Below, piece by piece: positions 11,394 to 47,131 of a stretch of 64,000 bases of DNA (position 1 is its first letter; the number at the start of each line of letters is the position of its first letter). The notes beneath the pieces were generated by a model, which saw only the letters and a list, made by a program, of their open reading frames with translations, ran no database searches and was not told where the DNA came from. Location of the stretch: positions 770-64,769 of the forward strand of contig JBGOTO010000001.1 in NCBI GenBank assembly GCA_041476485.1, in the 5' to 3' direction. The translations under genes and the position numbers were made by a program. Source of the stretch: Nitrospirota bacterium (GTDB lineage Bacteria > Nitrospirota > UBA9217).

Positions 11394-11431
11394 GTTACCT
11401 ATAATAAAATTAAAAAAAAATGGAGGGTCAC

Positions 11432-14314
11432 ATGAAAAAGTTTCTATCGGTTTCTCTTGTCATTATGGTTAGTGTTTTCACAGCCGCGGTCTGTACAGCC
11501 GAGCCGCCCACGGAGCCCATCCTCCGGATCGAGACCGGGATGCACACGGCGAAGATCGGGCGAATCGGCGTGGACGACGAAAACCGTTATCTCGTTACCG
11601 CGTCGGAAGACAAGACCGTGCGGCTCTGGGACCTTTCGACCGGCAGGCTCATCAGGATCTTCCGGCCGCCGGTAGGCGAGGGAAATGAAGGAAAGATTTA
11701 CTCAGTGGCCCTGTCCCCGGACGGGAACACCATTGCCTGCGGCGGATGGACGCAGTATGAAAACGGATCGTTCCAGGCGGTGGATTATTTCATCTACCTC
11801 TTTGACCGTCAGAGCGGCGGCGTCATCCGGAGAATCAGCGGACTGCCGAATGTCATTAACCAGCTCGCTTTTTCCCGGAACGGGGGATTTCTTGTGGCGA
11901 CCATGGGCCGGAGCAACGGCATCCGCGTCTACCGCTCTTCCGATTACCAGCAGGTGGCACTAGACGAGGATTACGGAGATAACAGCTACGGCGCCGACTT
12001 CGACGGGCAGGGGAGGCTGGTAACCGCGTCCTATGACGGCTATGTCCGCCTGTACAGCAGTTCCTTCAAGCTGATTGCAAAGATGAAAGCTCCCGGTGGA
12101 AACAAGCCCTTTGCGGTGCGTTTCAGTCCTGACGGCTCAAAGGCGGCGGTTGGATTCGTTGATTCCACAAAGGTGGATGTTCTCTCGGGGAATGATCTTT
12201 CCTCTCTTTTCTCTCCCGACACCTCGGGGGTGAACAACGGCAGCCTGTTCACCGTTTCCTGGTCTTCGGACGGGCGAAGTCTGTACGCAGGAGGACAGTA
12301 TACGAGCGACGGCACCCCCATCGTCAAATGGTCCGAAGGCGGCAGGGGCGCGCGCCGCAACTTGACGGCGGCAAACTCCACCATCATGCATATCCTGCCT
12401 CTGAAATCAGGCGGCATTGTTTTCAGCTCCTATGATCCCGCCTTCGGAATCATCAACGGCAGCGACCAACGCACACTCTTTAAAGCGCCCTCCACTCCCG
12501 ATTATCGGGACAACCAGCAGGGACTGCTGCTTTCTTACGACGGCTCATCCGTCCAATTCGCCTATGAACTCTGGGGCAAGTCGCCGGCTCGTATTTCCGT
12601 CTCCGAAGGGCTTCTTACCACACAGGTCGAAGCGACGAATTCCCAACTCGCCGCACCCGTCTTCTCTGCTCCGGGGATGGACATCACTAATTGGAAGTAC
12701 ACCTACGGTCCCAAACTCAACGGCGTCGAGCTGAAGCTGAAGCCGTATGAATGGTCGACCAGCATCGCCATCGCCCCGAATGGAGAATCGTTTCTCCACG
12801 GCTCGCTCTGGAACCTGCGCCTTTTTGACCGCGTCGGCGCCGAGAAATGGATCGTCCCCGCTCCGGGCGTGGTTTGGGCAGTGAACATCTCGGGGAACGG
12901 CAAAGTCGCGGTGGCGGCATGCGGCGACGGCACGGTCCGTTGGTACCGGATGACGGACGGGAAGGAACTTCTCGCCTTCTTCCCCCATATCGATAAAAAA
13001 CGCTGGGTCCTCTGGACCCCGTCGGGCTACTACATCGCTTCCCCCGGCGGCGAGGATCTGATCGGCTGGCACATCAACAACGGAAAAGACGCCGCTGCGG
13101 ACTTCTTTCCCGCTTCGCGGTTCCGGGACCGGTTCTACCGGCCCGACGTGACCGCGAAAATTCTCGGAACGTTCGATGAATCCGAAGCGGTCCGTCTGGC
13201 GAATGAAGAGTCGGGAAGGAGGCAGCAGGAGGCGTCGATCAAGCAGGCCCTGCCGCCGGTCGTGAGCATCGTCTCTCCTTCGGACGGCGCCGTTGTCTCA
13301 AATTCGCAGATCACCGTCAAATTCACGGTCCGGACGCCGTCCGGTGAACCGGTGACGTCTATCAAGGCTTTGGTGGACGGCCGTCCGGTCGCAGCGGAGC
13401 GGGGAGTCACCATAACCCCGAAAGACGCCGAACAAAGGGAAATCAGTATAACCGTCCCCGAGCAGAACACGGAGGTCTCGATTATCGCAGAGAACCGGTT
13501 TGCGGCAAGCGAGCCGGCAACGATACGGGTCAAATGGCGCGGGAAAAAGCAGCAGGACGAGTTCATCATCAAGCCGAAGCTCTATGTCCTGTCCGTCGGA
13601 GTGAGCAAGTACCAGAACCCCGATCTCACCCTGGGGCTTGCCGCCAAGGACGCCAAAGACTTCGCCGCCACCATGCAGAAGCAGCAGGGAGGGCTTTACC
13701 GCGAGGTGGTGACAAAGGTCCTGACCGATGAAAAGGCGACCAAGGACGATATTCTCGACGGTCTCGACTGGCTCCAGCGGCAGACCACGAGCAAGGACGT
13801 GGCCATGATCTTTCTGTCCGGCCACGGCGTGAACGACCAGAACGGCATCTACTATTATCTTCCGGTGAACGCGGACATCGAAAAACTCAAGCGGACGGGA
13901 GTGCCGTTCTCGGACGTCAAGAACACGGTGGCGTCACTGGCCGGGAAGACGGTTTTCTTCGTGGACACCTGCCATTCCGGGAGCGTCATGGGCCAGCGGC
14001 GCGGGCTGACCGACATCACCGCGATGGTGAATGAGCTTTCGAGCGCCGAGAACGGGGCGGTGGTCTTCGCCTCGTCCACCGGGGGCCAGTACTCCCTTGA
14101 GAAGTCGGAATGGGGAAACGGCGCTTTTACCAAGGCACTCATTGAGGGCATGAGCGGCAAAGCGGACTATACCGGCAAGGGCAAAATCAGCATCAACATG
14201 CTCGACCTGTATCTTTCCGAGCGGGTGAAGGAATTGACCAAAGGTAAACAGACGCCGACGACCACGAAGCCCAGCACCGTCCCGGACTTCCCCGTGGCGG
14301 TGAAGAGGCAGTAA
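11432..14314 (+). CDS. secreted WD40 beta-propeller / Ig-like / caspase (peptidase C14) multidomain protein
   Basis: Signal peptide MKKFLSVSLVIMVSVFTAAVCTA. WD40 repeats such as TASEDKTVRLWDLSTGRLIRIF and GDGTVRWYRMTDGKEL. Ig-like segment PPVVSIVSPSDGAVV...IRVKW. Caspase His-Cys dyad in FLSGHGV (His codon ~13823) and VDTCHSG (Cys codon 13971..13973). The ORF track start at 11420 lies 12 nt upstream; ATG 11432 has a GGAGGG RBS. Confidence 0.8.
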   Translation: MKKFLSVSLVIMVSVFTAAVCTAEPPTEPILRIETGMHTAKIGRIGVDDENRYLVTASEDKTVRLWDLSTGRLIRIFRPPVGEGNEGKIYSVALSPDGNTIACGGWTQYENGSFQAVDYFIYLFDRQSGGVIRRISGLPNVINQLAFSRNGGFLVATMGRSNGIRVYRSSDYQQVALDEDYGDNSYGADFDGQGRLVTASYDGYVRLYSSSFKLIAKMKAPGGNKPFAVRFSPDGSKAAVGFVDSTKVDVLSGNDLSSLFSPDTSGVNNGSLFTVSWSSDGRSLYAGGQYTSDGTPIVKWSEGGRGARRNLTAANSTIMHILPLKSGGIVFSSYDPAFGIINGSDQRTLFKAPSTPDYRDNQQGLLLSYDGSSVQFAYELWGKSPARISVSEGLLTTQVEATNSQLAAPVFSAPGMDITNWKYTYGPKLNGVELKLKPYEWSTSIAIAPNGESFLHGSLWNLRLFDRVGAEKWIVPAPGVVWAVNISGNGKVAVAACGDGTVRWYRMTDGKELLAFFPHIDKKRWVLWTPSGYYIASPGGEDLIGWHINNGKDAAADFFPASRFRDRFYRPDVTAKILGTFDESEAVRLANEESGRRQQEASIKQALPPVVSIVSPSDGAVVSNSQITVKFTVRTPSGEPVTSIKALVDGRPVAAERGVTITPKDAEQREISITVPEQNTEVSIIAENRFAASEPATIRVKWRGKKQQDEFIIKPKLYVLSVGVSKYQNPDLTLGLAAKDAKDFAATMQKQQGGLYREVVTKVLTDEKATKDDILDGLDWLQRQTTSKDVAMIFLSGHGVNDQNGIYYYLPVNADIEKLKRTGVPFSDVKNTVASLAGKTVFFVDTCHSGSVMGQRRGLTDITAMVNELSSAENGAVVFASSTGGQYSLEKSEWGNGAFTKALIEGMSGKADYTGKGKISINMLDLYLSERVKELTKGKQTPTTTKPSTVPDFPVAVKRQ

Positions 14315-19170: not shown

Positions 19171-20505
19171 ATGGCGACCACGACAGTAAAACCGCTTGAC
19201 ACGTTCAAGGGAGGTGTCCATCCTCCCGACAACAAGGCCCTCACTGCCCACAAGCCGACCGTTACGGCGGCAGTTCCCAGAAGAGTCGTCATACCCCTAA
19301 GCCAGCACATCGGCGCGCCTACCAAACCGCTTGTCGTTATCGGACAGGAAGTCAAAAAAGGAGAGAAGATCGGCGATCCCGCCGGCTTTGTTTCCGCGCC
19401 GGTCCACGCCTCAATTTCCGGCAAGGTGGCCGCCCTCGGGAACTTTCCCCATCCCCTCGGAATGGATATGCCTTCCGTGGTCATCGAGAGCGACGGCAAG
19501 GACGAGTGGATCGCGGGACTCCGGGAGAACCCCGACTACGGCCTGCTGGGCCCCGAGGAACTCAAGAAGATCGTTCAGGACGCGGGCGTCGTAGGCATGG
19601 GCGGGGCCACGTTCCCCACTCACGTAAAGCTTGCGCCCCCGAAGGAAAAGCCCGTTGACGTGGTGATCCTGAACGGCGCGGAGTGCGAACCCTTTCTGAC
19701 CTCCGACCACCGCCTCATGCTCGAACGGCCGAAGGAAATCATCGAAGGCCTCAAAATCCTCATGCGGATCTTGAACGTTCAGAAGGGATACATCGGCATC
19801 GAATCGAATAAGCCCGACGCGATCGAGGTCATGACCGAAGCCGCGTCCGGTTCTCCGGACATCAAAGTCTGGCCGGTCAAGGTGAAGTATCCCCAGGGCG
19901 CGGAGAAGATGCTGATCAAAGCCATTGTCGGCAGGACCGTTCCCGCCGGCGGCCTTCCCATGGACGTCGGCGCGCTCGTGCAGAACGTCGGCACGGCCGT
20001 GGCCGTTTACCACGCGGTCCGATACGGCAGGCCGCTCATCGAGCGCGAAGTAACGGTCACCGGAAGAGGGGTCAGGGAACCGAAGAACTTTCTCGCCCGG
20101 ATCGGCACGCCGTTCTCCCAACTTATCGAGGAAGCCGGCGGGCTGACCGACGACGCGGCCAAGGTGATCTCCGGCGGCCCCATGATGGGCATGAGCGAGT
20201 ATACGCTCGAGGTGCCGGTGATCAAGGGCACGTCGGGCATTCTCGTTCTCCCGAAGGCCGAAGTCAGCATGAAGTCCTATGGCCCGTGCATCCGCTGCGC
20301 CCGGTGCATCGACGCCTGCCCCATGAAACTCCAGCCGTCTTACATCGGCATCTATATCGAAAAGGGCCGTTACGAAGAGTCCAAAGAGTTCGGCTTGCTG
20401 GACTGCTTCGAGTGCGGGTGCTGCACCTTCGTCTGCCCGGCGAACCGGCCGATGGTCCAGTGGGTGAAAAAGGCGAAGAAGGAACTGGCGAAGAAGAAGG
20501 GTTAG
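19171..20505 (+). CDS. rnfC: Rnf electron transport complex subunit C
   Basis: NADH/FMN-binding fold GAECEPFLTSD and two C-terminal 4Fe-4S motifs (CIRCARCIDACP, CFECGCCTFVCP). Confidence 0.9.
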   Translation: MATTTVKPLDTFKGGVHPPDNKALTAHKPTVTAAVPRRVVIPLSQHIGAPTKPLVVIGQEVKKGEKIGDPAGFVSAPVHASISGKVAALGNFPHPLGMDMPSVVIESDGKDEWIAGLRENPDYGLLGPEELKKIVQDAGVVGMGGATFPTHVKLAPPKEKPVDVVILNGAECEPFLTSDHRLMLERPKEIIEGLKILMRILNVQKGYIGIESNKPDAIEVMTEAASGSPDIKVWPVKVKYPQGAEKMLIKAIVGRTVPAGGLPMDVGALVQNVGTAVAVYHAVRYGRPLIEREVTVTGRGVREPKNFLARIGTPFSQLIEEAGGLTDDAAKVISGGPMMGMSEYTLEVPVIKGTSGILVLPKAEVSMKSYGPCIRCARCIDACPMKLQPSYIGIYIEKGRYEESKEFGLLDCFECGCCTFVCPANRPMVQWVKKAKKELAKKKG

Positions 20506-20571
20506 TTCAGAGTTCAATGTTCGAAGTTCGGAACAGACAGTAAAATATTTTGGCCGAATGAGGTCTCTATA

Positions 20572-21603
20572 ATGGAAGCACCCGCAAAGGCACAGCCGAA
20601 AGAACAACCCAAACTGGTCGTTTCGATCGGGCCCCACCTGCACGACGTGGAGAGCACGGCGAAGATCATGTGGACCGTGAGCGGCGCGCTTCTTCCCGCA
20701 ACGCTCATGTCGGTCTATTTCTTCGGGATGCCGGCCCTGATGGTGATCCTCGTCTGTATCGTCACGTCTCTCCTGTCCGAGGCAGTTGTTCAGCGGATGC
20801 TGAAGAAGCCTGTTACCGTTTCCGACGGGAGCGCGTTCCTGACCGGTTTACTTCTTGCCATGAATCTTCCCGCGAATGCGCCGCTCTATATTCCGGCCGT
20901 CGGTTCATTCGTGGCCGTCGTGATAACGAAGCACCTCTTCGGCGGGCTCGGCTACAACATCTTCAACCCGGCGCTCATCGGCAGGGCCTTTGTCCTCATC
21001 AGCTTTCCCAAATTAATGACCACCTATGTCGCGCCCGCGGCCACTTTTATGGCCATAGACGCAAAGACCACGGCGACCCCGCTGGTCCTTCTGAAAGAAG
21101 AGGGGATGTCGAAGCTTCTCGAAATTTATCATACGAAATGGGCCCTGTACCAGGACCTGTTCCTCGGCAACCGCGCCGGGTCCCTCGGCGAAACATCAGT
21201 GGCCGCGCTTTTGCTCGGCGCCGCATTTCTCATGATGAAACGGTATATCACCTGGCACATCCCCATTACCTTCATCGCCACGGTTGGCGTCCTCACCTGG
21301 ATGTTCGGCGGCAAGGAAGGCCTTTTCTCGGGCGACGCAGTGTTGCATATGATGTCCGGCGGGCTGGTCCTCGGCGCGTTCTACATGGCCACGGACTATG
21401 TGACGGGCCCCTCGGTGCGCAGCGCCCAAGTGGTCTTCGGCATCTGCGCCGGAATTCTTACGACTCTCATACGGCTGAAAGGCGGCTATCCCGAAGGCGT
21501 GATGTTCGCCATCCTCCTGATGAATTGCTTCGCGCCGCTCCTTGACCGGAGCATGAAGAGCCGTATTTTCGGGAAGGCCGAGGCCAAGGTGGTGAAGAAA
21601 TGA
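20572..21603 (+). CDS. rnfD: Rnf complex subunit D
   Basis: NqrB/RnfD-like polytopic membrane protein with the conserved FMN-attachment region SGGLVLGAFYMATDYVTGP. Confidence 0.9.
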   Translation: MEAPAKAQPKEQPKLVVSIGPHLHDVESTAKIMWTVSGALLPATLMSVYFFGMPALMVILVCIVTSLLSEAVVQRMLKKPVTVSDGSAFLTGLLLAMNLPANAPLYIPAVGSFVAVVITKHLFGGLGYNIFNPALIGRAFVLISFPKLMTTYVAPAATFMAIDAKTTATPLVLLKEEGMSKLLEIYHTKWALYQDLFLGNRAGSLGETSVAALLLGAAFLMMKRYITWHIPITFIATVGVLTWMFGGKEGLFSGDAVLHMMSGGLVLGAFYMATDYVTGPSVRSAQVVFGICAGILTTLIRLKGGYPEGVMFAILLMNCFAPLLDRSMKSRIFGKAEAKVVKK

Positions 21604-22187
21604 AGGATATCCTGAAGATAACCCTGCCTCTCGTAGTGATTTTCGTTGTTGCGGGCATCATCATGAGCGTGACCTACCAGCATACCTATCCCGTCCGGTT
21701 TCAGGCGGAGAAGAAGGAAAAGGAAGAGGCGCTGAAAGAGATGGCGCCGGATGCGACCGACCCCATTAAACCGGCGGGGAACTGGACCGTCAATAACAAG
21801 CCCTACGAGTATTATGCGGCGACCTCCGGCAGAAAGCCGGTGGCCTACATCGCGGAAACCGCGGGCAAGGGTTATTCCAGTTTCATCAGGATGCTCGTTT
21901 CGCTCGGTCCCGATCTGAAAATCAGAGATGTCAAGATCCTCGGCCATGAAGAAACTCCCGGTCTCGGGGACCAGGTTGAGGACAAGAGTTTTCTGGACCA
22001 GTTCAAGGGAAAGACCCTTGCTCAGATCGTTCTGGTAAAGAAAGAAACGAAGGAAAACATCCAGGCCATATCCGGCGCGACCTATTCGAGCCGCGGCGTG
22101 ACGAATGGCGTTAAAGACGCGGCGCAGCAACTCATCGACACGTACGGGGCGGGCATCAAGAAGGCGGCGCGGGAGGTGAGGAAGTGA
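21600..22187 (+). CDS. rnfG: Rnf complex subunit G
   Basis: Single N-terminal TM, FMN-binding domain (SGATYSSRGV); overlaps the rnfD stop. Confidence 0.85.
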   Translation: MKDILKITLPLVVIFVVAGIIMSVTYQHTYPVRFQAEKKEKEEALKEMAPDATDPIKPAGNWTVNNKPYEYYAATSGRKPVAYIAETAGKGYSSFIRMLVSLGPDLKIRDVKILGHEETPGLGDQVEDKSFLDQFKGKTLAQIVLVKKETKENIQAISGATYSSRGVTNGVKDAAQQLIDTYGAGIKKAAREVRK

Positions 22188-22813
22188 GCAACCCTGTCAG
22201 TTACTGGACGCTTTTCAAAAACGGCATCTTCGGTGAGAACCCGGTTTTCAGGCTTGCGCTTTCTCTGTGCCCGGCCGTGGCCGTTACGAGCGGCGTGAAA
22301 AACGGGTTTCTGATGGGGGTCGCCGTCATGTTCGTCATGACCATGACGAACGTAACCGTTTCCCTGCTTCGGAACTTTATCAACCCGAAAGTCCGCATCC
22401 CCTCCTATGTGTTCATCACCGCGACCTGGGTCACGGTGATCGACCTGGTGATGTCGGCCTACCAAAGGGCGGTCTACAAGGAGATGGGCCTCTATATCAT
22501 GCTTATTGTCGCCTTTGCCATCATCCTCTCCCGGGCGGAGATGTTCGCGAGCAAGAATACACTCCTGCCGTCCTTCATCGACGGGGTAGGGATGGGGCTG
22601 GGTTTTCTGCTTGCCCTGGTCCTACTCGGCGTGTTCAGGGAGTTCCTCGGCAAAGGAACGCTCTGGGGCGCCCACATCCTGCCGGCAAAACCGCTGCTCA
22701 TCATGATTATGCCGACGGGCGGTTTCTTCGCCATGGGGCTCATCATGGGCGGGCTCAACTGGATCGACCGGAGGTTCTTCGGCGGCACGGGCGGCGGCGG
22801 GGGAGCGCATTAG
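22184..22813 (+). CDS. rnfE: Rnf complex subunit E
   Basis: RnfE/NqrD-family 6-TM protein; GTG start overlaps the rnfG stop. Confidence 0.85.
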   Translation: MSNPVSYWTLFKNGIFGENPVFRLALSLCPAVAVTSGVKNGFLMGVAVMFVMTMTNVTVSLLRNFINPKVRIPSYVFITATWVTVIDLVMSAYQRAVYKEMGLYIMLIVAFAIILSRAEMFASKNTLLPSFIDGVGMGLGFLLALVLLGVFREFLGKGTLWGAHILPAKPLLIMIMPTGGFFAMGLIMGGLNWIDRRFFGGTGGGGGAH

Positions 22814-22898
22814 AATTTCGGATTTCGGATTGTAGATTTCGGATTTTTTTTATTCCGCACTCCGCATTCCGCACTCCGCATTGCTGTAATCCGGAGGA

Positions 22899-23489
22899 AT
22901 GACCATGTGGGAGCATGTCGTAACGATATTCATAGCGTCGGCGCTCATCAATAACTTCGTTTTCTCGCGCTACCTCGGGCTGTGCATCTTTTTCGGCGTC
23001 ACGAAGAAGATGGAGACCGCGGTGGGCATGAGCTTTACCTTCACGGGGGTGATGCTGGTCGGCGCGGCGCTCAACTGGGCCATCTACAACTACGTGATGG
23101 TCCCCTATAGCCTGGGGTTCCTGAAGATCGTGATCTTCATCGGGACGATCGCCGCTTTTGTGCAGGCGGCCGACACGATCATGAAAAAAGTCGCCCCCGC
23201 GCTGTATTATAAGCTGGGCATTTACCTTGCCCTGATCGTGACGAACTGCATCATCCTCGCGGTGCCGCTCATCAACGCCGACGAGCACTACGGCCTGTTC
23301 GAGAGCATGGCCCTGGCCCTCGGTTCCGGCGCGGGGTTCAGCCTCGCCCTCATCATTATGGCGAGCATCCGGGAAAAGCTGGAACTCGCCGAGATCCCGA
23401 AATCGTTCCAGGGCCTGCCGATCTCGTTCATCGTGACCGGGCTCATCGCGCTGGCGTTTTTGGGGTTCTCGGGAATGATCACGTTGTAA
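22899..23489 (+). CDS. rnfA: Rnf complex subunit A
   Basis: RnfA/NqrE-family 6-TM protein. Confidence 0.85.
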   Translation: MTMWEHVVTIFIASALINNFVFSRYLGLCIFFGVTKKMETAVGMSFTFTGVMLVGAALNWAIYNYVMVPYSLGFLKIVIFIGTIAAFVQAADTIMKKVAPALYYKLGIYLALIVTNCIILAVPLINADEHYGLFESMALALGSGAGFSLALIIMASIREKLELAEIPKSFQGLPISFIVTGLIALAFLGFSGMITL

Positions 23490-23498
23490 AAATGTAAC

Positions 23499-23645
23499 TA
23501 CTCAGGTCAGTTGCTTCGCTTTGCGCAAGGCGCGCCGGATAATTAAGGGAATTTCGAAGTCGATCACAAGCCCCGCCTTGCTTGATGTCCGTGCATCGGT
23601 CGCCGCGCGCTTCATTGCGCCCGCGCTCCGCAGCAGACCTGAGTA
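23499..23645. repeat. MITE-like ~147-bp repeat, copy 2 (between rnfA and rnfB)
   Basis: Begins 10 nt after the rnfA stop; same TIRs and core as copy 1. Confidence 0.85.
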
Positions 23646-23729
23646 GTTATGTAAAAATGATAAATTCAAAGTGAAAAATTTACAATAAAGTGGTAGTATA
23701 CTTCTGCTTTAATTTTTTTGTGAAGGTGC

Positions 23730-24902
23730 ATGGCCATGGTTGAACACATAACGGACATTCTGACGCAGGTCTTCTCCTCCGCGCTCTCTCTTATTACGAA
23801 CAACCTGGCGCCGCTCGTCGACACAGGCGTCTCACCGGAGGCGACAGGGACCGTTCCCGCGTCCACGGTGTATATCACGCTGATCGTGCTCGCGGCGCTC
23901 GGCATTGTGTTCGGCGTGGCCCTTGCCCTCATCGCCGCCCGCTTCGTAGTGAAGGCGGATCCCAAGGTTGACAAGGTGCGCGAGTCCCTGCCGGGCGCGA
24001 ACTGCGGCGCCTGCGGTTTCGCGGGCTGCATGGGCTATGCCGAGGCCGTGGTCGGGAACCCCGACGTGGCGGTGAGCCTCTGCGCCCCCGGCAAGGCCGC
24101 CGTGGCAGCGATGATCGCCGACATTACGGGCAAGAAGGCGGAAAAGATGGACCCCAAGATCGCCCGGGTCTTCTGCCAGGGCGGGACGTCCCTCTCCCAG
24201 CGAAAGTTCATCTATACGGGCGTGAAAGACTGCACCGCGGCGGTGCTCGCCGCGGGTGGAGACAAGTCCTGCGACTACGGCTGCCTGGGCTACGGGACGT
24301 GCATGCGCGCCTGTCCTTTCGACGCCATCACGATGAGCACGGACAACCTGCCGATCATCCATCCGGACAAATGCACGGCCTGCGGCAAGTGCGTGGCCGC
24401 CTGCCCCAAGCAGGTGATCGAACTCGCCCGGGCGTCCAAGGCCGTGGTGATCAGCTGCCACAGCAGGGACAAGGGCGCGGACACGAAGAAGAAGTGCCAG
24501 GTGGGCTGCATCGCCTGCGGCATCTGCGTCAGGACCTGCCCGGTGAACGCCATCACGCTCGAGAACAATATCGCCCGGATCGACCATGCCAAGTGCATCA
24601 CCTGCGGCCTGTGCGTGACCAAGTGCCCCATGAACACGATCAAGGATTATATCCCGGTCCGCGCGAAGGCCTTCATCGATTCCACAAAATGCGTCGGCAT
24701 CGACGCGTGCGAAAAGATCTGCCCGGTGAACGCCATCTCGGGAGACGTCGGGTCGCTGCATGTCGTCGATCAGGAGAAGTGCATCGGCTGCGGCATGTGC
24801 GAGCCCCGCTGCCCCAAGAAGGCCATTACCATGGTCGAGGCAGCGTCAACGGCAGCCGTTGCGAAGAAGCGCGAAAAGGAGCAGGAAACGGTCAAGGTGT
24901 AG
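23730..24902 (+). CDS. rnfB: Rnf complex subunit B with extended polyferredoxin C-terminus
   Basis: N-terminal TM anchor, the CGACGFAGC cluster, and then more than five CxxCxxCxxxCP 4Fe-4S motifs. Confidence 0.85.
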   Translation: MAMVEHITDILTQVFSSALSLITNNLAPLVDTGVSPEATGTVPASTVYITLIVLAALGIVFGVALALIAARFVVKADPKVDKVRESLPGANCGACGFAGCMGYAEAVVGNPDVAVSLCAPGKAAVAAMIADITGKKAEKMDPKIARVFCQGGTSLSQRKFIYTGVKDCTAAVLAAGGDKSCDYGCLGYGTCMRACPFDAITMSTDNLPIIHPDKCTACGKCVAACPKQVIELARASKAVVISCHSRDKGADTKKKCQVGCIACGICVRTCPVNAITLENNIARIDHAKCITCGLCVTKCPMNTIKDYIPVRAKAFIDSTKCVGIDACEKICPVNAISGDVGSLHVVDQEKCIGCGMCEPRCPKKAITMVEAASTAAVAKKREKEQETVKV

Positions 24903-24914
24903 TTAGCCGCGAAT

Positions 24915-25062
24915 TACTCAGGTCAGCTACCTCGCTTTGCGCAAGGCGCGCCGGATCATTAAGGGAATTTCTAAGTCGACCCACAAGCCCCGCCTTGCTT
25001 GATGTCGGTGCATCGGTCGCCGCGCGCTTTATTGCGCCTGCGCTCCGCAGCAGACCTGAGTA
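24915..25062. repeat. MITE-like ~147-bp repeat, copy 3 (after rnfB)
   Basis: Begins 12 nt after the rnfB stop; same orientation as the other copies. Confidence 0.85.
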
Positions 25063-25345
25063 GTTACAAGAATTTTTAAAAAGCACGGAGGGGATGTAAA
25101 AAAGCATTCCCTTTTTTATTTCTCCGGCCTGTGCCCCGTCCCCCCGCGGGTCATTCCCCTTGACAATGCCGTATCCCTATGTAAGAATAAAATGGTTCTC
25201 CGCAACGGCGAGGAACATCTTCCGCGCATGCACGGGCGCCGCGAATTTTTTTGGGGAAGCTCCCGCTCTTTTTGCTTGACAAAAATATGCGCTTAGGCTA
25301 AAAACAGAACCATTCTCGATTTGTTCACGCTTCCGGAGGTATCAT

Positions 25346-25735
25346 ATGAATCCCGATGACATCAAATATCACAGAGAGCATGCCTGGGTGCGGGTTGAAG
25401 GAAAGAAGGCGACGATCGGCATCACCGACTACGCGCAACAGCAGCTCGGAGATATCGTCTACGTGGAACTGCCCGAGGCCGATACGGAAATCGACGCCGA
25501 TTCGGAACTGTCCGAGGTCGAATCCACAAAGGCGACATCGCCGGTGGTCAGCCCCGTGTCGGGGACGGTCGTCGAGGTGAATGAAGACCTTGCCGACACG
25601 CCGGAAATCATCAACGAAGATCCCTATGGCAACGGATGGTTCGTTGTCCTTGAAATGACCGATCCTTCCGAGGTGAATGATTTGATGAGCAAGGCGGCGT
25701 ACGAGAAGTTTTTGAAGGAAGAAGAGGGGAAGTAG
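25346..25735 (+). CDS. gcvH: glycine cleavage system H protein (lipoyl carrier)
   Basis: 129 aa; lipoyl-lysine motif ESTKATS (EVESTKATSPVVSPVSG). Confidence 0.85.
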   Translation: MNPDDIKYHREHAWVRVEGKKATIGITDYAQQQLGDIVYVELPEADTEIDADSELSEVESTKATSPVVSPVSGTVVEVNEDLADTPEIINEDPYGNGWFVVLEMTDPSEVNDLMSKAAYEKFLKEEEGK

Positions 25736-25827
25736 AAAGAGGCCGTCAACAGCAAGTACGGAATTGAAAAGACCGAAGGGAGAGTGTTTACTCTCCCTTT
25801 TTTATTCTCTGTTCCAAGGAGCGCGAA

Positions 25828-27228
25828 ATGGCGATAAAACTCACGATCATCGGCGCCGGACCCGGCGGCTACGTGGCCGCGGTCCGCGCGGCGCAGATGG
25901 GCGCGCAAGTGACGGTCATCGAAGACACGGAAGTGGGAGGCGCCTGCCTGAACCGGGGCTGCATCCCGACGAAGACCATCATCGCCTCAGCCGAGACGCT
26001 GGAGCGCATGCGCCGCGCCGCGGACTTCGGCATTGAACCCGCGGGAGCGGTCGGGTATAACCTCGCCAAGATCCGCGAGCGCAAGGACCGGGTCGTTTCG
26101 ATGCAGGCGCAGGGTATCCGAAACCTGTTCAAAAGCTGGGGCGTCAACCTGATCGAGGGCCGCGGCTCATTGCTCTCTCCCGACGCCGTGCGGGTCGTCC
26201 GGAAAGACGGCATGACCATGGATATAAAATCCGACAACGTCATTATCGCAACGGGTTCGAGACCGGCGACGATACCCGGCGTTTCTTTTGACAACGAGCA
26301 GGTCATTTCGAGCGACGATGCGGTCCAGTTGAAGAGCATTCCCAAGAGCCTGCTGATCATCGGCGCCGGGATCATCGGGTGCGAGTTCGCTTTCCTCTAC
26401 CGGACCTTCGGGGCCGAAGTAACGATGGTAGAACTGCTGCCCCGCGCTCTGTCCACCGAAGACGAGGAAATGGCCGACCTCATCGAACGGGAGTTCAAAA
26501 AGTCCAAAATCAAACTCATCACAAACGTGAGGGTCGAGAAGGTCGAAAAAGACGGCGATGGCTTGATGGTCGCCGTACTTTCGGACGGTCGGCAGATAAA
26601 GACGGAAATGGTTCTCGTGTCCATCGGGCGAAAGATGAACTCCGAAGACCTCGGTTTGGAGCCCCTGGGTGTTGCCACGGGCAAACACCGCGAGATCATC
26701 GTGAACGAAAAAATGGAGACGAATGTGCCGGGCGTCTACGCCATAGGCGACGTGACGGGCAAGATGTTGCTCGCCCACGTGGCGTCACACCAGGGACTCG
26801 TCGCCGTGGGAAACGCCCTCGGCGGCGATGAGAAGATGGATTACACCACGGTCCCGTCGGGCATCTTTACCATGCCCGAGATCGGCAGCGTGGGCCTTCG
26901 GGAGAAGCAGGCCGCCGAGCAGGGGATAAAATACCGCGTCGGCAGGTTCGAATACCGGGCGCTCGGCAAGGCGCACGCCATGGGAGAGATCACCGGCATG
27001 GTGAAGGTCATCGCCGACGAGACGACGGACAAGGTGCTCGGCGTGCACATCTGCGGCGCCCATGCGACGGACATGGTCCACGAAGGCGCGCTCGCCGTCC
27101 GAATGGGCGTGACGGCAAAGCAGCTCGGCGGGATGATCCACGCCCATCCGACGCTGTCCGAGGTCGTGATGGAAGCGGCCCTTGACGCGCACAAGACGGC
27201 GATCCACGCACCGAAGGCGGGAGGGTAA
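25828..27228 (+). CDS. lpdA: dihydrolipoyl dehydrogenase
   Basis: GAGPGGY FAD motif, redox-active GGACLNRGCIPTK, C-terminal HAHPTLSE His-Glu dyad. Confidence 0.9.
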   Translation: MAIKLTIIGAGPGGYVAAVRAAQMGAQVTVIEDTEVGGACLNRGCIPTKTIIASAETLERMRRAADFGIEPAGAVGYNLAKIRERKDRVVSMQAQGIRNLFKSWGVNLIEGRGSLLSPDAVRVVRKDGMTMDIKSDNVIIATGSRPATIPGVSFDNEQVISSDDAVQLKSIPKSLLIIGAGIIGCEFAFLYRTFGAEVTMVELLPRALSTEDEEMADLIEREFKKSKIKLITNVRVEKVEKDGDGLMVAVLSDGRQIKTEMVLVSIGRKMNSEDLGLEPLGVATGKHREIIVNEKMETNVPGVYAIGDVTGKMLLAHVASHQGLVAVGNALGGDEKMDYTTVPSGIFTMPEIGSVGLREKQAAEQGIKYRVGRFEYRALGKAHAMGEITGMVKVIADETTDKVLGVHICGAHATDMVHEGALAVRMGVTAKQLGGMIHAHPTLSEVVMEAALDAHKTAIHAPKAGG

Positions 27229-27238
27229 TACTACCTTG

Positions 27239-28057
27239 ATGATTTATCTACGGATAACGGCGCTTGCCCTTGCCCTGCTCTGCTTCGGAAGTAGTCTTGC
27301 CCGTTCAGCTTTTGCCGACGAAAAAGAGATCTACGTGGCGATCGACAGTTTCACCTGGAGGGAGTTCGGAGACGACGGGTCCCGTTTATTGAAAGAATTA
27401 GGCCCCATTGTAGGCATCGGCTTCGCCTATTGGAGTGAGAATGAACATCATGTTACGTTGAGACCGACTGCGGAAATTTTCGTCGGCACCGTGAATTATG
27501 ATGGACATGCCTGCGATAGTTTCGGGAACTGCCAACCTGCAAAAACCCAAGTGGATTATTTCGGCTTCAAACTCGAAGGCGATCTCGGCCGCCGATTCAG
27601 ACCTTATGAGGGCCTCTATCTTGAACCTTTCGGCGGCCTCGGTTATCGCGCGTGGCTCCGGAATATACGCAACGGCACCGCCGCAGACGGCAGCCCTACC
27701 GCGGGATATATGGAAGATTGGAAAACATTCTACGCACGTTTGGGGCTGAGAGGCGGCAGGGAATTCTCGGAAGCTTCCCGATTTTTTGCCGAAGCGGGGA
27801 TGAAACTTCCCCTGTATAACGAGAACACCGCGTACCTGAGCAAGGCAGGTCTGGGGTCCGACGTCACGTTTAATCCCGGGAAAATGGTTTCTTATTTCGC
27901 TGAAGCGGGAGTGAAGATCAACAGGTTCAAGTGGAGCTTGTTTTACGACGGTCTGAGGTTCTCCAAGTCCAATACGGTGCAGAGCGGAATCTATCTTTAC
28001 TGGCAGCCCAAATCCACGATGGATATTTACGGCCTCAAGCTCGGCTATACGTTCTAA
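27239..28057 (+). CDS. outer-membrane beta-barrel protein (hypothetical)
   Basis: Signal peptide MIYLRITALALALLCFGSSLARSAFA, alternating amphipathic strands, C-terminal ...LGYTF (terminal aromatic). Confidence 0.6.
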   Translation: MIYLRITALALALLCFGSSLARSAFADEKEIYVAIDSFTWREFGDDGSRLLKELGPIVGIGFAYWSENEHHVTLRPTAEIFVGTVNYDGHACDSFGNCQPAKTQVDYFGFKLEGDLGRRFRPYEGLYLEPFGGLGYRAWLRNIRNGTAADGSPTAGYMEDWKTFYARLGLRGGREFSEASRFFAEAGMKLPLYNENTAYLSKAGLGSDVTFNPGKMVSYFAEAGVKINRFKWSLFYDGLRFSKSNTVQSGIYLYWQPKSTMDIYGLKLGYTF

Positions 28058-29433
28058 TCCGGTTCGTTCAGCTTCGCGAAGGCCTTCAGCACCACCTCGG
28101 AAAGCGCGGGATGGATATGGATCCCCCTGGCAACGGACCAGAGGTCCCCGTCTGCCGCCATGACATTCACTACCTCCTGGATCAGGACCGATGCCTGGGG
28201 GCCGATGATGTGGTATCCCAGTATCTTCCCGCTTTTGCGGTGCACGACGGCCTTGGTAAACCCCTCGGTCTCCATCATCGCCTCGCCGCGCGCCACGTCC
28301 GTGTACCTTGCCTTGCCCGTAAGCACTTCATGCTTGCCCATGAGCTTCACTGCCTGCTCCTCCGTCAGGCCCACGGACGCTATCTCGGGATAGGAGAAGA
28401 CGGCATGCGGAACTGCGAGGTAATTCATTTTTGATTTTTTCCCGTGGACGGCATTGTGCCAGATGATCTCGGCCTCGTGATTGGCGGTGTGCCGGAACAT
28501 CTTTTTGCCGACGGCGTCGCCGAAGGCCCAGATGTTCTTCTTCCCGGTCTCCAGGTAATCGTCAACCACGATGTACCCTTTTTCGTCCGTCTTGACGCCC
28601 GTATTTTTGACCATCAGGACATCGGCATTTGACTTTCTGCCCGCGGCGATAAGGACGTGCCGCGCCGTGACCTCCCTCTGTTTGCCGCTGTCCAGTTCTT
28701 TTGCCGTGACCGTCGTGACCTTTCCGGTTTGGCGGACTTCAATCGCTTCCGTATTCGTATACACCGTCATGCGGCGGGAAAGGGTGGTCTTGAGCAATTC
28801 CGAGACTTCCGGCTCTTCATCGGGCACGAGCTGCTTGTTGCGCTGAATGATCGTGACCTTCGCGCCCATGGCCTCGAAGAAATGAGCGAACTCGCACGCG
28901 ACATATCCTCCGCCGATGATGACCATGCTCTCGGGTTTCTCGGTGAGCCGGAGGACGCTCTCGTTCGTGAGGTATTCGATACTTTCAATTCCTTTAAGGG
29001 GAGGGATGAGGGGCCGGGCGCCGGTGACGAGAAAAATGGTCTTGCCCTTGATCGTATTGCTGTTTACCTCGAGTGTGTAATCCCCGGTGAAATGCGCCTC
29101 GCCGAAATAAAAATCCAACTCCTCGGTTTTCTCCAATGCTTCCTTGATGCGGTCATGGCCCTGCTTGACGTGCTCCCGCATCCGCTCCATGATCGCGCCG
29201 AAGTCTATGCTCTCGATCTTGGCTGAAATGCCGAGTTTCTTTGTTTCCCGTATTTCGACGATTCTATCCGCCGGATAGACGAGGATCTTCGTCGGGATTC
29301 AACCCATGTTGAGGCAGGTGCCGCCCAAAGGCCCCTTGTCCACGAGGGCCACGGTCATGTTGTGCGACAGCGCGTCTTCGATGAGGTTCGCGCCGGCGCC
29401 GGAGCCGATGATGACGACGTCATATTCTTTCAT
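28054..29433 (-). CDS. class-I pyridine nucleotide-disulfide oxidoreductase (Lpd/glutathione-reductase family) with in-frame TGA at the second active-site Cys position: candidate selenoprotein
   Basis: One continuous minus-strand frame from ATG 29433 to the stop at 28054, interrupted only by TGA at 29301..29299. Translation is MKEYDVVIIGSGAGANLIEDALSHNMTVALVDKGPLGGTCLNMG-[TGA]-IPTKILVYPADRIVEIRETKKLGI..., against the canonical GGTCLNVGCIPTK. Homology (CIPTK-like, NAD GxGxxG IIGGGYVACEF, C-terminal HIHPALSEV) continues on both sides. A hairpin lies 5-45 nt downstream (29256..29294). Confidence 0.7.
29256..29294 (-). promoter_or_regulatory. SECIS-like stem-loop immediately 3' of the in-frame UGA
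   Basis: mRNA after UGA is AUCC[CGACGA]AGAUCCUCG[UCUAUCC]GGC[GGAUAGA]A[UCGUCG]: a 6-bp lower stem, an internal loop, and a 7-bp upper stem with apical GGC, starting 5 nt after UGA. Confidence 0.45.
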
Positions 29434-29613
29434 GGATGATGTCCTTTCCTGAAACGTGCGCCCCCTTTGCCGAAGGACGGACAGGGGAGGATTTTTATTT
29501 GATTGTAGCAGGTTTACGGGAAGAGTCAATTAAACCGATTCTTCGTCTTGACTTATGGAAAAAATAACGCTATAAAACCGTAAGATTAGTAGCAAAGAAC
29601 CGGAGCCGACGCA

Positions 29614-30915
29614 TTGGACGATCAGCTAACGAAATACACACAAAAGCTCCTCCGCGACCGGACCGCGGTTGCGGAAAGCCTCCGCTTCTACCGGCTCGAC
29701 GACGTTTTGACGTCAAACAAACGGGACGAATGGCTTCCGCTCTTCACCGAGGTTTTCAACGGGCTGGACATCACCGCGATACTCTTTGCAAAACCGACGC
29801 TGCCTTTCGCTGACCTGCTTGTGGAACGGACCGATACGAACATTGATCGGCTTGTTCCGAAGGACAGCGAGACCAAAGGGTTCCTGCACGATATCCCCTT
29901 CATACGGGAGTGTGAATGGGCCGGGAGGCCGAAGCACGAGCTCGCAGGCATGATCGTCCGGTGTCTGAAAGAGCGGAAGGCGGCGATTATCCAGGGACTC
30001 GGCATGGTCGCGACGGGCGGCGTGACGGTGGAACAGGCGTACATCGGCTTTTCCACCCTGTTCCACACGACCTTCGTCAAATATCTTCTCGACCTGCTGG
30101 TAGAGGGGTTCAGGCTGCCGGGAGAAAAAGATGCTTTTGCGGCGTTTCGTAAGGATTGGTTGAAGACGCCGGACTTAGGCAGCCTTACCTTCACTCCGGG
30201 ACCGCTTGAAGGCAATGCGGAGTGCGGAATGCGCCCTGCACTCGCGCGAGCACTCGTAAACGCTGGGTGCAGGCGGAATGCGGAATGCGTGAATCGTAGT
30301 CAGGGAACAGACGCAATCTATCGTGAAGTCTGCAGGGTCGGACGCTATACCGTCGAGAAGGGATACGTAGACTCCTTTTTCGGGAACATCAGTTATTTCG
30401 ACGGAAAGACCATCTACATCAGCCAGACTACTTCATCGCTCGACGAGCTTGAAGGCCATATCGACCCTGTACCGCTCGACGGCTCATCCACTGCCGGGCT
30501 TTCGGCCTCATCGGAATTGCCTGCTCACCGGGGGATATACCTGTCTTCGGACTATCATGCCGTCCTTCACGGTCACCCCAAGTTCAGCGTGGTCATGTCC
30601 ATGTACTGCGTGGAGGAAGGCTGCACGATTCCCGACTGCAACCGGTTTTGCGATCGCAAACGTTCCGTGTGCGGCGTGCCGGTCGTGGCCGGAGAGACGG
30701 GCGCCGGCGGGCTGGCAACATCCGTTCCTCTTGCCATCAACAAGACCGGCGTCTGCATCGCCTACGGGCACGGTATTTTTTCTGCAGGGAAGAAAGATTT
30801 TCGGGATGCGTTCATGAACATGGCGGAGGCGGAAGACAAGTGCAGAGACGGGTATTTTGAACTGCTGGAAGGCAGGAAGGTAGAAGGTCACGAAGTTAAG
30901 AAGTTAGGAGAGTAA
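29614..30915 (+). CDS. two-domain protein whose C-terminal half is class II aldolase/adducin-like; the heptamer repeat is embedded in-frame mid-ORF
   Basis: TTG start. The C-terminal half has GNISYFDG, HAVLHGHP and AYGHGIFSAG (class II aldolase Zn/His motifs). Residues encoded by 30214..30292 (NAECGMRPALARALVNAGCRRNAECVNRS) come from the GCGGAAT repeat element that is intergenic at five other loci. Confidence 0.6.
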   Translation: MDDQLTKYTQKLLRDRTAVAESLRFYRLDDVLTSNKRDEWLPLFTEVFNGLDITAILFAKPTLPFADLLVERTDTNIDRLVPKDSETKGFLHDIPFIRECEWAGRPKHELAGMIVRCLKERKAAIIQGLGMVATGGVTVEQAYIGFSTLFHTTFVKYLLDLLVEGFRLPGEKDAFAAFRKDWLKTPDLGSLTFTPGPLEGNAECGMRPALARALVNAGCRRNAECVNRSQGTDAIYREVCRVGRYTVEKGYVDSFFGNISYFDGKTIYISQTTSSLDELEGHIDPVPLDGSSTAGLSASSELPAHRGIYLSSDYHAVLHGHPKFSVVMSMYCVEEGCTIPDCNRFCDRKRSVCGVPVVAGETGAGGLATSVPLAINKTGVCIAYGHGIFSAGKKDFRDAFMNMAEAEDKCRDGYFELLEGRKVEGHEVKKLGE

Positions 30916-43479: not shown

Positions 43480-43683
43480 ATGAAGTCAGTAATGGACATA
43501 GCAAAAGAGGAAGAGCGGAAAGAGTTCCTCAAGCGTTCCCCGCTTGAGAGGATGGAAGTCATGCACGATTTTCTGTTCCAGGTCATCGCCCTAAAAGCGC
43601 GAGGGGAAAGAGTCCCTGAATATGAGATCTATACGAGATACCTTAGAGACAATCCGAGACATTACGAACGCTCTTCCCGTTAA
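43480..43683 (+). CDS. small ORF overlapping (different frame) the downstream NTase gene; possible frameshifted N-terminus
   Basis: 67 aa; overlaps 43622..43683 of the next ORF in another frame. Confidence 0.3.
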   Translation: MKSVMDIAKEEERKEFLKRSPLERMEVMHDFLFQVIALKARGERVPEYEIYTRYLRDNPRHYERSSR

Positions 43684-44230
43684 AGTCACTATCGTTCTTA
43701 CCGGCGGATATGCCGTAATCGCGCACGGCGTCGAACGAACGACCCTTGACCTTGATTTTTGCGTCTACTCCGACCTTATCGAAACCGCCGACACTGCCGC
43801 ATTTTTCGATGTTCTGAAAAAAAATCTCCCCAAAAGATATGAAGCAGAACTGAGGCAAGGCAGCAAAATCCCCGATGATCCTTTCAAGCATGACCTCATC
43901 CGTATTATTGACAATCAAAAAGAGTTTTTGAGAATCGACTTGCTGATAGCCCGCTATAAATGGGAGCTGGAGGGCATGGAGCTGGCCGTGCATCTTAAAG
44001 ACATTCCCTTGCCCGTCCTGAGCAAGCCGTACCTCGTTGCCATGAAGCTGCAAGCCACGGCGTACAAGGACTACCAGGATGTCGTGACCCTGTTTGACCT
44101 CATGACCGAAGAAGAAAAAGCAAAGACGCGGGAGCTTGCAAAGCGGACCCACAGGGACAAAAAGCTTGACCGGATTCTTTCCCCGCCGCCCGAAGAAGAA
44201 GTGCGGGAAATGCCGGAGGAGTATTTATAG
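43622..44230 (+). CDS. Pol-beta-superfamily nucleotidyltransferase (AbiEii/MNT-like)
   Basis: TGGYAVIAHGVERTTLDLDF is a G-G-x13-D-x-D NTase motif, followed by a helical C-terminal region. Confidence 0.55.
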   Translation: MRSIRDTLETIRDITNALPVKVTIVLTGGYAVIAHGVERTTLDLDFCVYSDLIETADTAAFFDVLKKNLPKRYEAELRQGSKIPDDPFKHDLIRIIDNQKEFLRIDLLIARYKWELEGMELAVHLKDIPLPVLSKPYLVAMKLQATAYKDYQDVVTLFDLMTEEEKAKTRELAKRTHRDKKLDRILSPPPEEEVREMPEEYL

Positions 44231-44335
44231 ACGCTCTGCGAGCAGCACAGACTCCACATCATTCGTTTCTTCTTAGTCGTGTTCCACCCCAAAGTATCAT
44301 GGAATATCCTTTCTGACGGCGTCCGGCTTTTTGTC

Positions 44336-44460
44336 ATCAATGGCCTGCACGCACCCTGTGCGCGTCAGTCGCTCAAGGCCGGCGTGCCCGAGTGAGACGA
44401 GCTTTTCGGGAAACTCCTGGCCGGCCTTTTCTTGACGCGCGACGAAAGTTATGATTGAAT
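44336..44460 (+). promoter_or_regulatory. conserved ~125-nt upstream element, copy A (upstream of rtcB)
   Basis: Aligns with 61917..62040: atcaa.tgcct..gcacgc....tgtgcgcgtc...tcgctcaagg.c.g.gtgc...gtgaga...ttt.ggg.aa.tcctggc...cttgac...tatg.t.aat. Confidence 0.55.
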
Positions 44461-44511
44461 TCTAGTAGTAAGAGCAATTTGGCGCGTTCAGACGTATCCG
44501 GAGGGAGAACC

Positions 44512-45996: not shown

Positions 45997-45997
45997 C

Positions 45998-46429
45998 ATG
46001 CCGTACCGGTTCCTCGAAGATGTCGCTATCGCCGATGTCGCCTTCGAAGCCGAAGGGCGGGTCCTTCCGGAATTGTTCAAGGAGGCGGGCCTTGCGGTGA
46101 CGAACACGATGGTGCAGGACCTTTCGCAGATCGAGCACAAGATCGCAAAGAGGATCAAGGGCGCGGCGGAGAATATCGAGATGCTGCTGTTTCATTTTTT
46201 GCAGGACCTGATTTTCTACAAGGACGCGGACCTGCTTCTCTTTAGCGATTTTCATCTCACGATCGTCCAGCGGGAAGGCGAGTGGCGCCTCCATGGAACG
46301 GCCTATGGCGAAGAGATATCCCCTGACCGGCATGAACTTCTTGTCGACGTAAAGGCGGTGTCTCTCCATAATTATAAAGTCCGGAAAACGGCAAAGGGAT
46401 GGCAGGCGGAAGTCATCCTTGATGTGTGA
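45998..46429 (+). CDS. archease (RtcB activator)
   Basis: 143 aa, 1-nt gap after rtcB; matches the archease family pattern. Confidence 0.75.
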   Translation: MPYRFLEDVAIADVAFEAEGRVLPELFKEAGLAVTNTMVQDLSQIEHKIAKRIKGAAENIEMLLFHFLQDLIFYKDADLLLFSDFHLTIVQREGEWRLHGTAYGEEISPDRHELLVDVKAVSLHNYKVRKTAKGWQAEVILDV

Positions 46430-46688: not shown

Positions 46689-46695
46689 ATAGGCA

Positions 46696-46800
46696 CATAA
46701 AGCTGGGGGAGCCTATGGCTGAGAGTCCTGTTCACGAGGGACGACCCTTGGAACCTGATCCGGGTAGTGCCGGCGTAGGGAAGGCGAGTATGTACCAGGA
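46696..46800 (+). promoter_or_regulatory. TPP (THI-box) riboswitch
   Basis: CTGGGGGAGCC...GCTGAGAG...ACCCTTGGAACCTGATCCGGGTAGTGCCGGCGTAGGGAAG matches the THI-element core (CUGAGA, ACCUGAUCYGGNUAAUACCNGCGNAGGGA). Confidence 0.85.
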
Positions 46801-47118: not shown

Positions 47119-47131
47119 GAAGGAGCAGAGT

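Follow-up and report, generated by a model that had tools for sequence, protein, structure and literature searches.

The stretch of DNA analysed here (64,000 nt; hereafter the window) covers positions 770 to 64,769 of contig JBGOTO010000001.1 in the Nitrospirota assembly GCA_041476485.1, and the gene under study lies on its minus strand at 28054..29433. In translation it is a single frame of 459 codons that opens with ATG at 29433..29431, closes with TAG at 28056..28054, and contains one in-frame stop, a TGA at 29301..29299 (codon 45). The TGA stands in the context GGTCLNMG-*-IPTK (residues 37–49), where the redox motif is otherwise intact, and 36 open codons separate it from the next ATG (Met82, 29190). 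The gene very probably encodes a bona fide selenoprotein, and the locus can be read with a high degree of confidence as one functional gene for a class-I flavoprotein disulfide reductase that contains selenocysteine (Sec). Enzymes of the glutathione reductase, lipoamide dehydrogenase and mycothione reductase type are homodimers that depend on flavin adenine dinucleotide (FAD) and on reduced nicotinamide adenine dinucleotide or its phosphate, NAD(P)H. A preliminary description of the window had joined two open reading frames (ORFs) into one, placed the TGA at the second Cys of the CxxxxC motif, counted the 36 open codons, and proposed a Sec-containing member of the Lpd/glutathione reductase family with a selenocysteine insertion sequence (SECIS). 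The translation agrees with the frame and the count, and the proposal as a whole is strongly supported by the comparative data below. The features of the gene are the following.

29502..29529, minus strand: promoter-like TTGACT-16 nt-TACAAT, its −10 element extended by TG, some 70 nt ahead of the ATG (consensus scan, consensus match only)
29442..29450, minus strand: Shine-Dalgarno-like AGGAAAGGA, 8 nt upstream of ATG 29433 (read from the sequence)
28054..29433, minus strand: complete predicted selenoprotein gene, UGA as Sec45, class-I flavoprotein disulfide reductase (translation, Pfam, NCBIfam, PDB)
29389..29406, minus strand: FAD-binding GxGxxG, here GSGAGA, residues 10–15, upstream of the UGA (translation)
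29314..29316, minus strand: TGC for Cys40, first Cys (putative interchange thiol) of the C-x4-U redox centre (sequence; role from PMC8358701)
29299..29301, minus strand: UGA codon 45, probably read as Sec, aligned with the second, flavin-proximal charge-transfer Cys of CxxxxC (homolog alignment, TGA scans)
29256..29294, minus strand: extended SECIS region with a 6-bp lower stem, CGACGA (29294..29289) and UCGUCG (29261..29256) (folds in the window sequence)
29263..29279, minus strand: candidate SECIS core, 7-bp stem UCUAUCC/GGAUAGA with apical loop GGC (ortholog comparison, RNAalifold, codon bias, bacterial SECIS criteria)
28897..28914, minus strand: NAD(P)H-binding GxGxxA, here GGGYVA, residues 174–179 (translation; PF00070)
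28834..28851, minus strand: IIQRNK, residues 195–200, end of the second Rossmann strand (alignment with the Lpd of the window and a solved mycothione reductase structure)
28096..28119, minus strand: HIHPALSE, with His441/Glu446 as the putative catalytic dyad of the dimerisation domain (translation; aligns with HAHPTLSE of Lpd; role from PMC8358701)

The read-through protein matches PF07992 at residues 4–320 (profile positions 1–290 of 291), PF00070 at residues 170–245 and PF02852 at residues 341–450, and carries HIHPALSE near its C-terminus (residues 439–446). Homology across the TGA, up to and including this dyad, had been noticed in the preliminary description and is upheld by the three domain matches. 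The features of a class-I flavoprotein disulfide reductase are thus all present: GxGxxG, CxxxxC with UGA as its second position, NAD(P)H-binding and dimerisation domains, and the His-Glu dyad. The first Cys of CxxxxC in this class is the interchange thiol and the second the charge-transfer thiol that contacts FAD (PMC8358701), and Sec45 is therefore placed next to the flavin. A transcript from the putative promoter would take in the 44 codons that precede the UGA; both the promoter and AGGAAAGGA sit before ATG 29433, not before the internal ATG at 29190. The gene is monocistronic, with one divergent and one convergent neighbour. TGA is not reassigned, being the ordinary stop codon of 13 of the 45 Pfam-supported genes in the window.

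At the protein level all 119 best full-length database homologs, mostly from metagenome-assembled genomes (MAGs) of Nitrospirota and 73–86% identical to the read-through product, have Cys at the position of codon 45. This view is misleading in that it suggests a point mutation or an error: Sec orthologs are absent from the matches because gene callers stop at the TGA and store shorter, lower-scoring fragments. DNA was therefore searched directly. One genome per species (n = 185,579) was scanned for GGN ACN TGY NTN AAY NNN GGN TGA NTN CCN NNN AAR, a motif in which Sec is fixed at the second Cys, and 58 loci with TGA at the same codon were found, compared with about 0.5 expected by chance by our own estimate. 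Counted from record titles, 24 loci belong to Nitrospirota, 16 to Rokubacteria/Methylomirabilota, five to Bacillota (three Ammoniphilus, two of them isolates, one Brevibacillus and one Bacillaceae), two each to Binatia, SAR324 and Acidobacteria, one each to Syntrophobacteraceae, Planctomycetota, Chloroflexota and an archaeon, and three are unclassified. Wherever a locus is not cut by a contig end, a proper N-terminus lies ahead of the TGA and about 400–446 open codons follow it; the exceptions are L008 (314 codons) and L009 (39 codons). A lone TGA in an otherwise intact gene across many lineages is, judged by sequence comparison, the signature of recoding and not of decay.

Twenty of the 58 loci are orthologs of the window gene (60–81% identity). 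A sister group of five has about 50% identity, and the remaining loci, at about 30%, make up at least three further subfamilies, with the motifs GTCVNTGUIPTK, GTCVNRGUIPKK and GTCLNWGUMPKK. Two contigs (L025 and L028) of the Nitrospirota MAG DATDRO01 (SMAG_U7979) carry two different Sec-type genes, from the 63% and 50% identity groups, which shows that a genome is not limited to a single CxxxxU enzyme. The sole archaeal match (L009:3730-3765, on a Nitrososphaeraceae contig) has no hairpin after its TGA and probably represents not a selenoprotein but a pseudogene or fragment.

The candidate SECIS of the window gene consists of a 5′ arm UCUAUCC (29279..29273), a loop GGC (29272..29270) and a 3′ arm GGAUAGA (29269..29263), and overlaps codons V52–R57 (VYPADR). 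Folded alone it reaches −6.7 kcal/mol (z = −3.9), and none of 200 shuffles folds as well. The preliminary description had given the stem-loop a 6-bp lower stem, a 7-bp upper stem and a GGC loop. The upper stem and loop are found at that position and are conserved, whereas the lower stem exists in the window sequence but is not conserved. Across 54 orthologs 76% of lower-stem cells pair; of the six pairs, three are disrupted in roughly half of the sequences, and the lower stem is probably a variable, non-essential extension. RNAalifold on the 54 distinct Sec sequences predicts just the 7-bp stem and its triloop; 99.5% of upper-stem cells pair, and the closing pair is U-A in 39 sequences, U-G in 12 and C-G in three.

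The bSECISearch model of Zhang and Gladyshev, as summarised in PMC13188914, has a loop of 3–9 nt, a stem of 4–16 bp, a G in the first two loop positions, a distance of 16–37 nt from the UGA, and a minimum free energy of −7.5 kcal/mol or lower. The hairpin agrees with four of these five constraints, namely loop size, stem length, loop G and spacing, and its loop begins 26 nt after the UGA, which bears out the earlier remark that the stem-loop occupies the position expected of a bacterial SECIS. The hairpin received no Rfam assignment at gathering thresholds; scanned permissively, 29200-29340 yielded only noise (E > 4).

Hairpin and TGA occur together. Metagenomes scanned with the peptide context GTCLN.G-[TGA/TGC/TGT]-IPTK...YP.DR gave 95 matches, 48 with TGA, 40 with TGC and 7 with TGT; the homolog comparison proposed in the preliminary description has thus returned orthologs with either a Sec or a Cys codon, in a ratio of 48 TGA to 47 TGC/TGT in this sample. 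Seven of seven stem positions pair in 47 of the TGA forms and six of seven in the other, where the closing pair is mismatched. Only one to five of the seven pair in each of the 46 Cys forms that could be scored, none of which has the hairpin (Fisher p = 6e-28 for the association with TGA). The codons beneath the stem follow the same division: TAT for Tyr, CCG for Pro, GAT for Asp and AGA/AGG for Arg are used by all 48 TGA forms, and by 19, 15, 3 and 4 of the 46 Cys forms, respectively. Mean local fold energy at +18..+44 is −8.6 kcal/mol in TGA forms and −3.2 kcal/mol in Cys forms (p = 7e-12), despite the lower G+C content of the Sec segments. The difference is purely synonymous because both classes encode the same (V)YPADR. 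The window bears the Sec-type codons TAT CCG GCG GAT AGA, a combination essentially never met in Cys forms, and three further Cys orthologs, fetched separately, also have no hairpin.

Separate hairpins, located 13 nt past the UGA, occur in the other subfamilies; their loops are of the G-G-U type and their stems show compensatory changes: AGACCUU-GGU-AAGGUCU, GGCCUU-GGUC-AAGGCC, GCCCUG-GUC-AGGGC and GGUGCU-GGUG-AGCACC. Inspection of the sequences in the SAR324/Binatia/Acidobacteria group gave no single convincing conserved hairpin. Carriers of predicted C-x4-U proteins include Nitrospirota, Rokubacteria/Methylomirabilota, Binatia, SAR324, Acidobacteria, Chloroflexota, Planctomycetota and cultured Ammoniphilus (Bacillota); the Sec forms make up about half of the orthologs of the Nitrospirota family in one metagenome sample, and gene callers have cut these genes short in every source database examined. 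It is reasonably likely that the proteins constitute an unrecognised and widespread group of bacterial selenoenzymes, comprising class-I reductases of at least four subfamilies in which the Sec of C-x4-U would contact FAD.

Several observations weigh against the selenoprotein interpretation or add nothing to it. The 81-nt context of the hairpin is of ordinary stability (z = −0.06), and the single sequence alone would not convince. The core, at −6.7 kcal/mol, falls short of the −7.5 kcal/mol of the bacterial model, which is reached only with the non-conserved flanks (−12.6 to −16.6 kcal/mol); a comparison with the bacterial SECIS criteria, as advised in the preliminary description, therefore favours the element in loop, stem, G and spacing, and in energy only with those flanks. 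The stem is nearly invariant among the Sec orthologs, so that classical covariation is thin, with compensatory changes at one pair. No selA, selB, selD or tRNA-Sec was found within the 64-kb window or the scanned loci: ARAGORN returned only tRNA-Gly and tRNA-Leu from the window and 52 loci, and Pfam scans of 50 ORFs (drawn from 57 non-overlapping calls plus a few alternative overlapping ones) contained no sel genes. We infer the capacity of this organism to decode Sec; Nitrospirae are documented to carry selB/selC (PMC8124441). When all frames of the window that merge across a TGA were listed, no other convincing UGA-interrupted gene was found, and the thioredoxin and TlpA-like genes nearby encode the usual WCGPC and WCPPC.

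Within the class, the enzyme is not readily assigned to a named member. Among NCBIfam models it is best matched by NF004947 ‘dihydrolipoyl dehydrogenase’ (610 bits, cut-off 592), while it scores under the cut-offs of TIGR01350 lipoamide_DH (365 vs. 408.8) and of the mycothione reductase models NF005884 (424 vs. 501) and TIGR03452 (386 vs. 636), and the CoA-disulfide reductase model NF007123 gives only 80 bits. The closest PDB entries are mycothione reductases, with 8qcj the best (E = 4e-85). By these scores and matches, the nearest fold family with a solved structure is that of mycothione reductase, to which the gene nevertheless does not belong. In pairwise alignment QRNK stands where the neighbouring canonical Lpd has VELL, so that the NAD-type Glu is replaced, and a solved mycothione reductase structure has IIGRSQRLLR at the position of IIQRNK. 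Enzymes of the mycothione reductase type use NADPH. The QRNK signature suggests NADPH over NAD+ as the cofactor, although we infer both this preference and the catalytic consequence of Sec from homology.

These data bear on the possibility that the selenoprotein is a plain dihydrolipoyl dehydrogenase (E3) of a 2-oxoacid or glycine-cleavage complex. The NF004947 score would fit such a role, as would gcvH about 2.3 kb away (gcvH stop at 25735). The gene is, however, monocistronic, its TIGR01350 score is too low, the NAD-type Glu has given way to Gln-Arg-Asn-Lys, its closest solved relatives are mycothione reductases, and a canonical Lpd only 29% identical to it follows directly after gcvH. An E3 function is thus unlikely, and because the canonical Lpd adjoins gcvH 1 kb away, the protein is probably not the E3 of either kind of complex.

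For a Sec-containing disulfide reductase outside these complexes the following mechanism can be proposed. SelB with Sec-tRNA(Sec) would bind the hairpin on the translating mRNA and insert Sec at the UGA, giving a Cys40-Sec45 selenenylsulfide beside the flavin. NAD(P)H, probably NADPH, would reduce FAD, and FADH- would in turn reduce the S-Se bond, leaving the Sec45 selenolate in the flavin-proximal charge-transfer role. Cys40 would then attack the disulfide substrate to form a mixed disulfide, which Sec45 would resolve, while acid-base catalysis would fall to His441/Glu446 of the partner subunit.

The dyad and the C-terminus vary among the Sec forms. In the subgroup at about 50% identity (L001, L032 and L057) the dyad His is replaced by Phe, with KMHAFPTL(A/P)EL in place of the IHIHPALSE of the window; this Phe resembles that of the Phe-His dyad of 2-KPCC. 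The Chloroflexota sequence (L047) reads YVFPTLGG and is without both His and Glu. A selenolate may relax the need for a catalytic base. Some Sec orthologs have natural poly-His tails (L050, ...GEHHHHHDR; L018, ...EEKEHHHHHH; L041, ...PEGHHHHH), and members of the Rokubacteria-type subfamily share a C-terminal AAHDHHE(I/V)C motif. Each of these features hints that the protein may bind metal or have a further redox or ligand site.

A further alternative accepts genuine recoding at the UGA but with Cys as the inserted residue, SelB bringing in a tRNA(Sec)-like tRNA that carries Cys. SelB-dependent recoding of this kind was described by Vargas-Rodriguez et al. (2018), as cited in PMC8762117. Half of the orthologs use Cys at this site, where it would be fully functional, and neither the tRNA nor genes for Sec synthesis are seen in the window. 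The phenomenon is nevertheless rare, and an elaborate signal would be costly without obvious benefit where TGC would serve. Moreover, the hairpin fits the general SECIS model of bona fide bacterial selenoproteins (in energy only with its flanks), and UGA forms occur in many phyla, including lineages documented with selB/selC. Insertion of Cys is accordingly given a low probability, and Sec insertion is preferred.

A pseudogene, or a sequencing or assembly error in which TGC or TGT was mutated or misread as TGA, is scarcely credible. The TGA is one substitution from either codon, the contig is metagenome-assembled, the database entry is a truncated 378-aa ORF (P0021), and the 119 best full-length homologs all have Cys. 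The Cys-only matches are, however, due to gene callers that stop at the TGA, while the same TGA recurs in 58 species genomes and 48 metagenome contigs, in frames that are otherwise undisrupted save for L008 and L009, and the window carries the Sec-type codons TAT CCG GCG GAT AGA. Termination at the UGA, with a 378-aa protein made from Met82 (29190), perhaps a 44-residue leader, and a regulatory or pausing role for the hairpin, has in its favour the public annotation of P0021 and the ATG at 29190, but is hardly tenable, as that product would have neither the GxGxxG fold (GSGAGA) nor either redox residue, aligns with PF07992 from profile position 58 onward only, leaves aside 36 codons from the UGA to Met82 that are open and conserved at the protein level in all orthologs, and has no Shine-Dalgarno sequence or promoter at its internal start, the promoter-like site lying upstream of ATG 29433. 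The recurrent TGA, the co-conserved hairpin and the lost FAD and redox motifs led to the rejection of the pseudogene, error and truncated-product explanations.

Sec and Cys forms share their chromosomal surroundings. An OMP-like gene is convergent downstream and a gene with an Aldolase_II domain divergent upstream in both; further out lie a small ORF and then AddAB-like helicase-nuclease genes, with GcvH and the canonical Lpd on the other side. From this synteny the Sec and Cys versions are taken to be interchangeable orthologs at one chromosomal position. In a rough, unbootstrapped neighbour-joining tree of 180 sequences the two forms are interleaved, with about 16 switches, and the nearest relative of the window gene is a Sec form (L109), followed by two Cys forms (P0001 and P0002). 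A single hairpin sequence is common to all Sec forms, and one origin with repeated loss of Sec to Cys is therefore more likely than repeated gain. The preliminary description had regarded the gene as a specialised Sec paralog of the nearby Lpd. The canonical Cys-Cys Lpd (25828..27228) is real and convergent, but at 29% identity it is not a close paralog; the gene falls instead in a mycothione reductase-like subfamily and is the positional ortholog of Cys genes in sister genomes. Gene neighbourhoods in Ammoniphilus and Rokubacteria (BCCT transporter, histidine kinase, AcrB, Mur ligase) contained nothing informative.

The divergent neighbour at 29614-30915 (plus strand) encodes 433 aa, with the class II aldolase domain only in the C-terminal half (residues 237–411) and no assigned domain in the N-terminal half. 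At many loci it stands beside the gene, in Sec and Cys forms alike; it was seen at 31 of 73 Sec loci, a good number of the 73 being too short for a decision. At 19171-27228 (plus strand) a complete operon of the Rnf type, with RnfC, D, G, E and A and an RnfB-like polyferredoxin, is succeeded by GcvH and the Cys-Cys Lpd, and the GcvH-Lpd pair also flanks the gene in several related loci. At the locus of one Cys ortholog, on a 247-kb contig (L060:5539-6940, minus strand), the Lpd beside GcvH is called as two overlapping ORFs of 84 and 397 aa, probably through an assembly frameshift. Elsewhere in the window, a 964-aa protein at 11420-14314 (plus strand) has WD40 repeats at its N-terminus and a caspase (Peptidase_C14) domain at its C-terminus; 43622-46429 (plus strand) holds a gene for a toxin domain of the AbiEii nucleotidyltransferase type and, after it, a pair encoding RtcB RNA ligase and archease; and a TPP riboswitch (65 bits) at 46695-46799 (plus strand) precedes a thiamine cluster at 47111-51598, which encodes ThiG, ThiE, ThiC, then an M23 peptidase and a ThiD-type kinase.

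In flavoprotein disulfide reductases such as glutathione reductase, lipoamide dehydrogenase, MerA and TrxR, the mechanism rests on a thiolate-flavin charge-transfer pair. If the present interpretation is true, Sec at the flavin-proximal site would be a new catalytic arrangement, in which selenolate-FAD charge transfer, direct reduction of an S-Se bond by the flavin and the need for a His base could be studied. Natural Cys orthologs at 86% identity would provide built-in controls, cultured carriers (Ammoniphilus) allow a direct test, and the Sec/Cys polymorphism at one syntenic locus would be a clean system for the study of selenoprotein loss and gain. The group would also add a family to the prokaryotic selenoproteome of poorly studied soil and groundwater phyla, and it points to a systematic mis-annotation in which Sec forms are stored as 378-aa fragments.

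No Lpd-, glutathione reductase- or mycothione reductase-type CxxxxU protein was found among the selenoproteins tabulated by the 2022 and 2026 reviews, in deep-Sep, BSepDB, the GOS and Olavius-symbiont studies or the 2006, 2007 and 2008 papers of Zhang and Gladyshev, or by full-text literature search, and no selenoprotein-specific model of NCBIfam release 20 matches five representatives of these subfamilies. The gene would represent a Sec form of class-I flavoprotein disulfide reductases that is widespread and, apparently, undescribed.

The predicted enzyme can be compared with several known systems. It shares with mycothione reductase, glutathione reductase, dihydrolipoyl dehydrogenase and MerA the same domain order, from the FAD-binding GxGxxG through to the HxxxxE dyad, and the redox motif GGTCxNxGC(I/V)P(T/S)K, an affiliation on which Pfam and NCBIfam agree. 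Unlike these enzymes, it encodes the flavin-proximal Cys position by UGA, and it scores below the cut-offs for Mtr and for Lpd (TIGR01350); mycothiol production is not known from the host phylum. Its hairpin resembles the bacterial SECIS consensus in having a 3-nt loop that begins with GG, a 7-bp upper stem and a spacing of 26 nt, and differs from it in having no conserved lower stem or bulge and a core weaker than the model. The reviews do list bacterial Sec proteins of the CoA-disulfide reductase/NADH oxidase type (TIGR03385, UGxP). These, too, are flavoproteins of the pyridine-nucleotide-disulfide oxidoreductase superfamily with Sec in place of a redox Cys, but they have a single redox Cys, no CxxxxC and no dimerisation domain with a His-Glu dyad; the known bacterial Sec type III sulfide:quinone reductase is a flavoprotein of another family. 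To our knowledge, animal TrxR is the only well-known selenoenzyme among the flavoprotein disulfide reductases. The animal high-molecular-weight enzyme, TXNRD, belongs to the same superfamily and also has a Cys-Sec selenenylsulfide. Its Sec lies in a C-terminal GCUG extension, the flavin-side CVNVGC stays Cys-Cys, and its SECIS is of the eukaryotic 3′-UTR (untranslated region) type. The window protein, unlike TXNRD, would have its Sec within the N-terminal CxxxxC beside FAD, with no C-terminal redox tail, and its candidate SECIS is a bacterial hairpin inside the reading frame.

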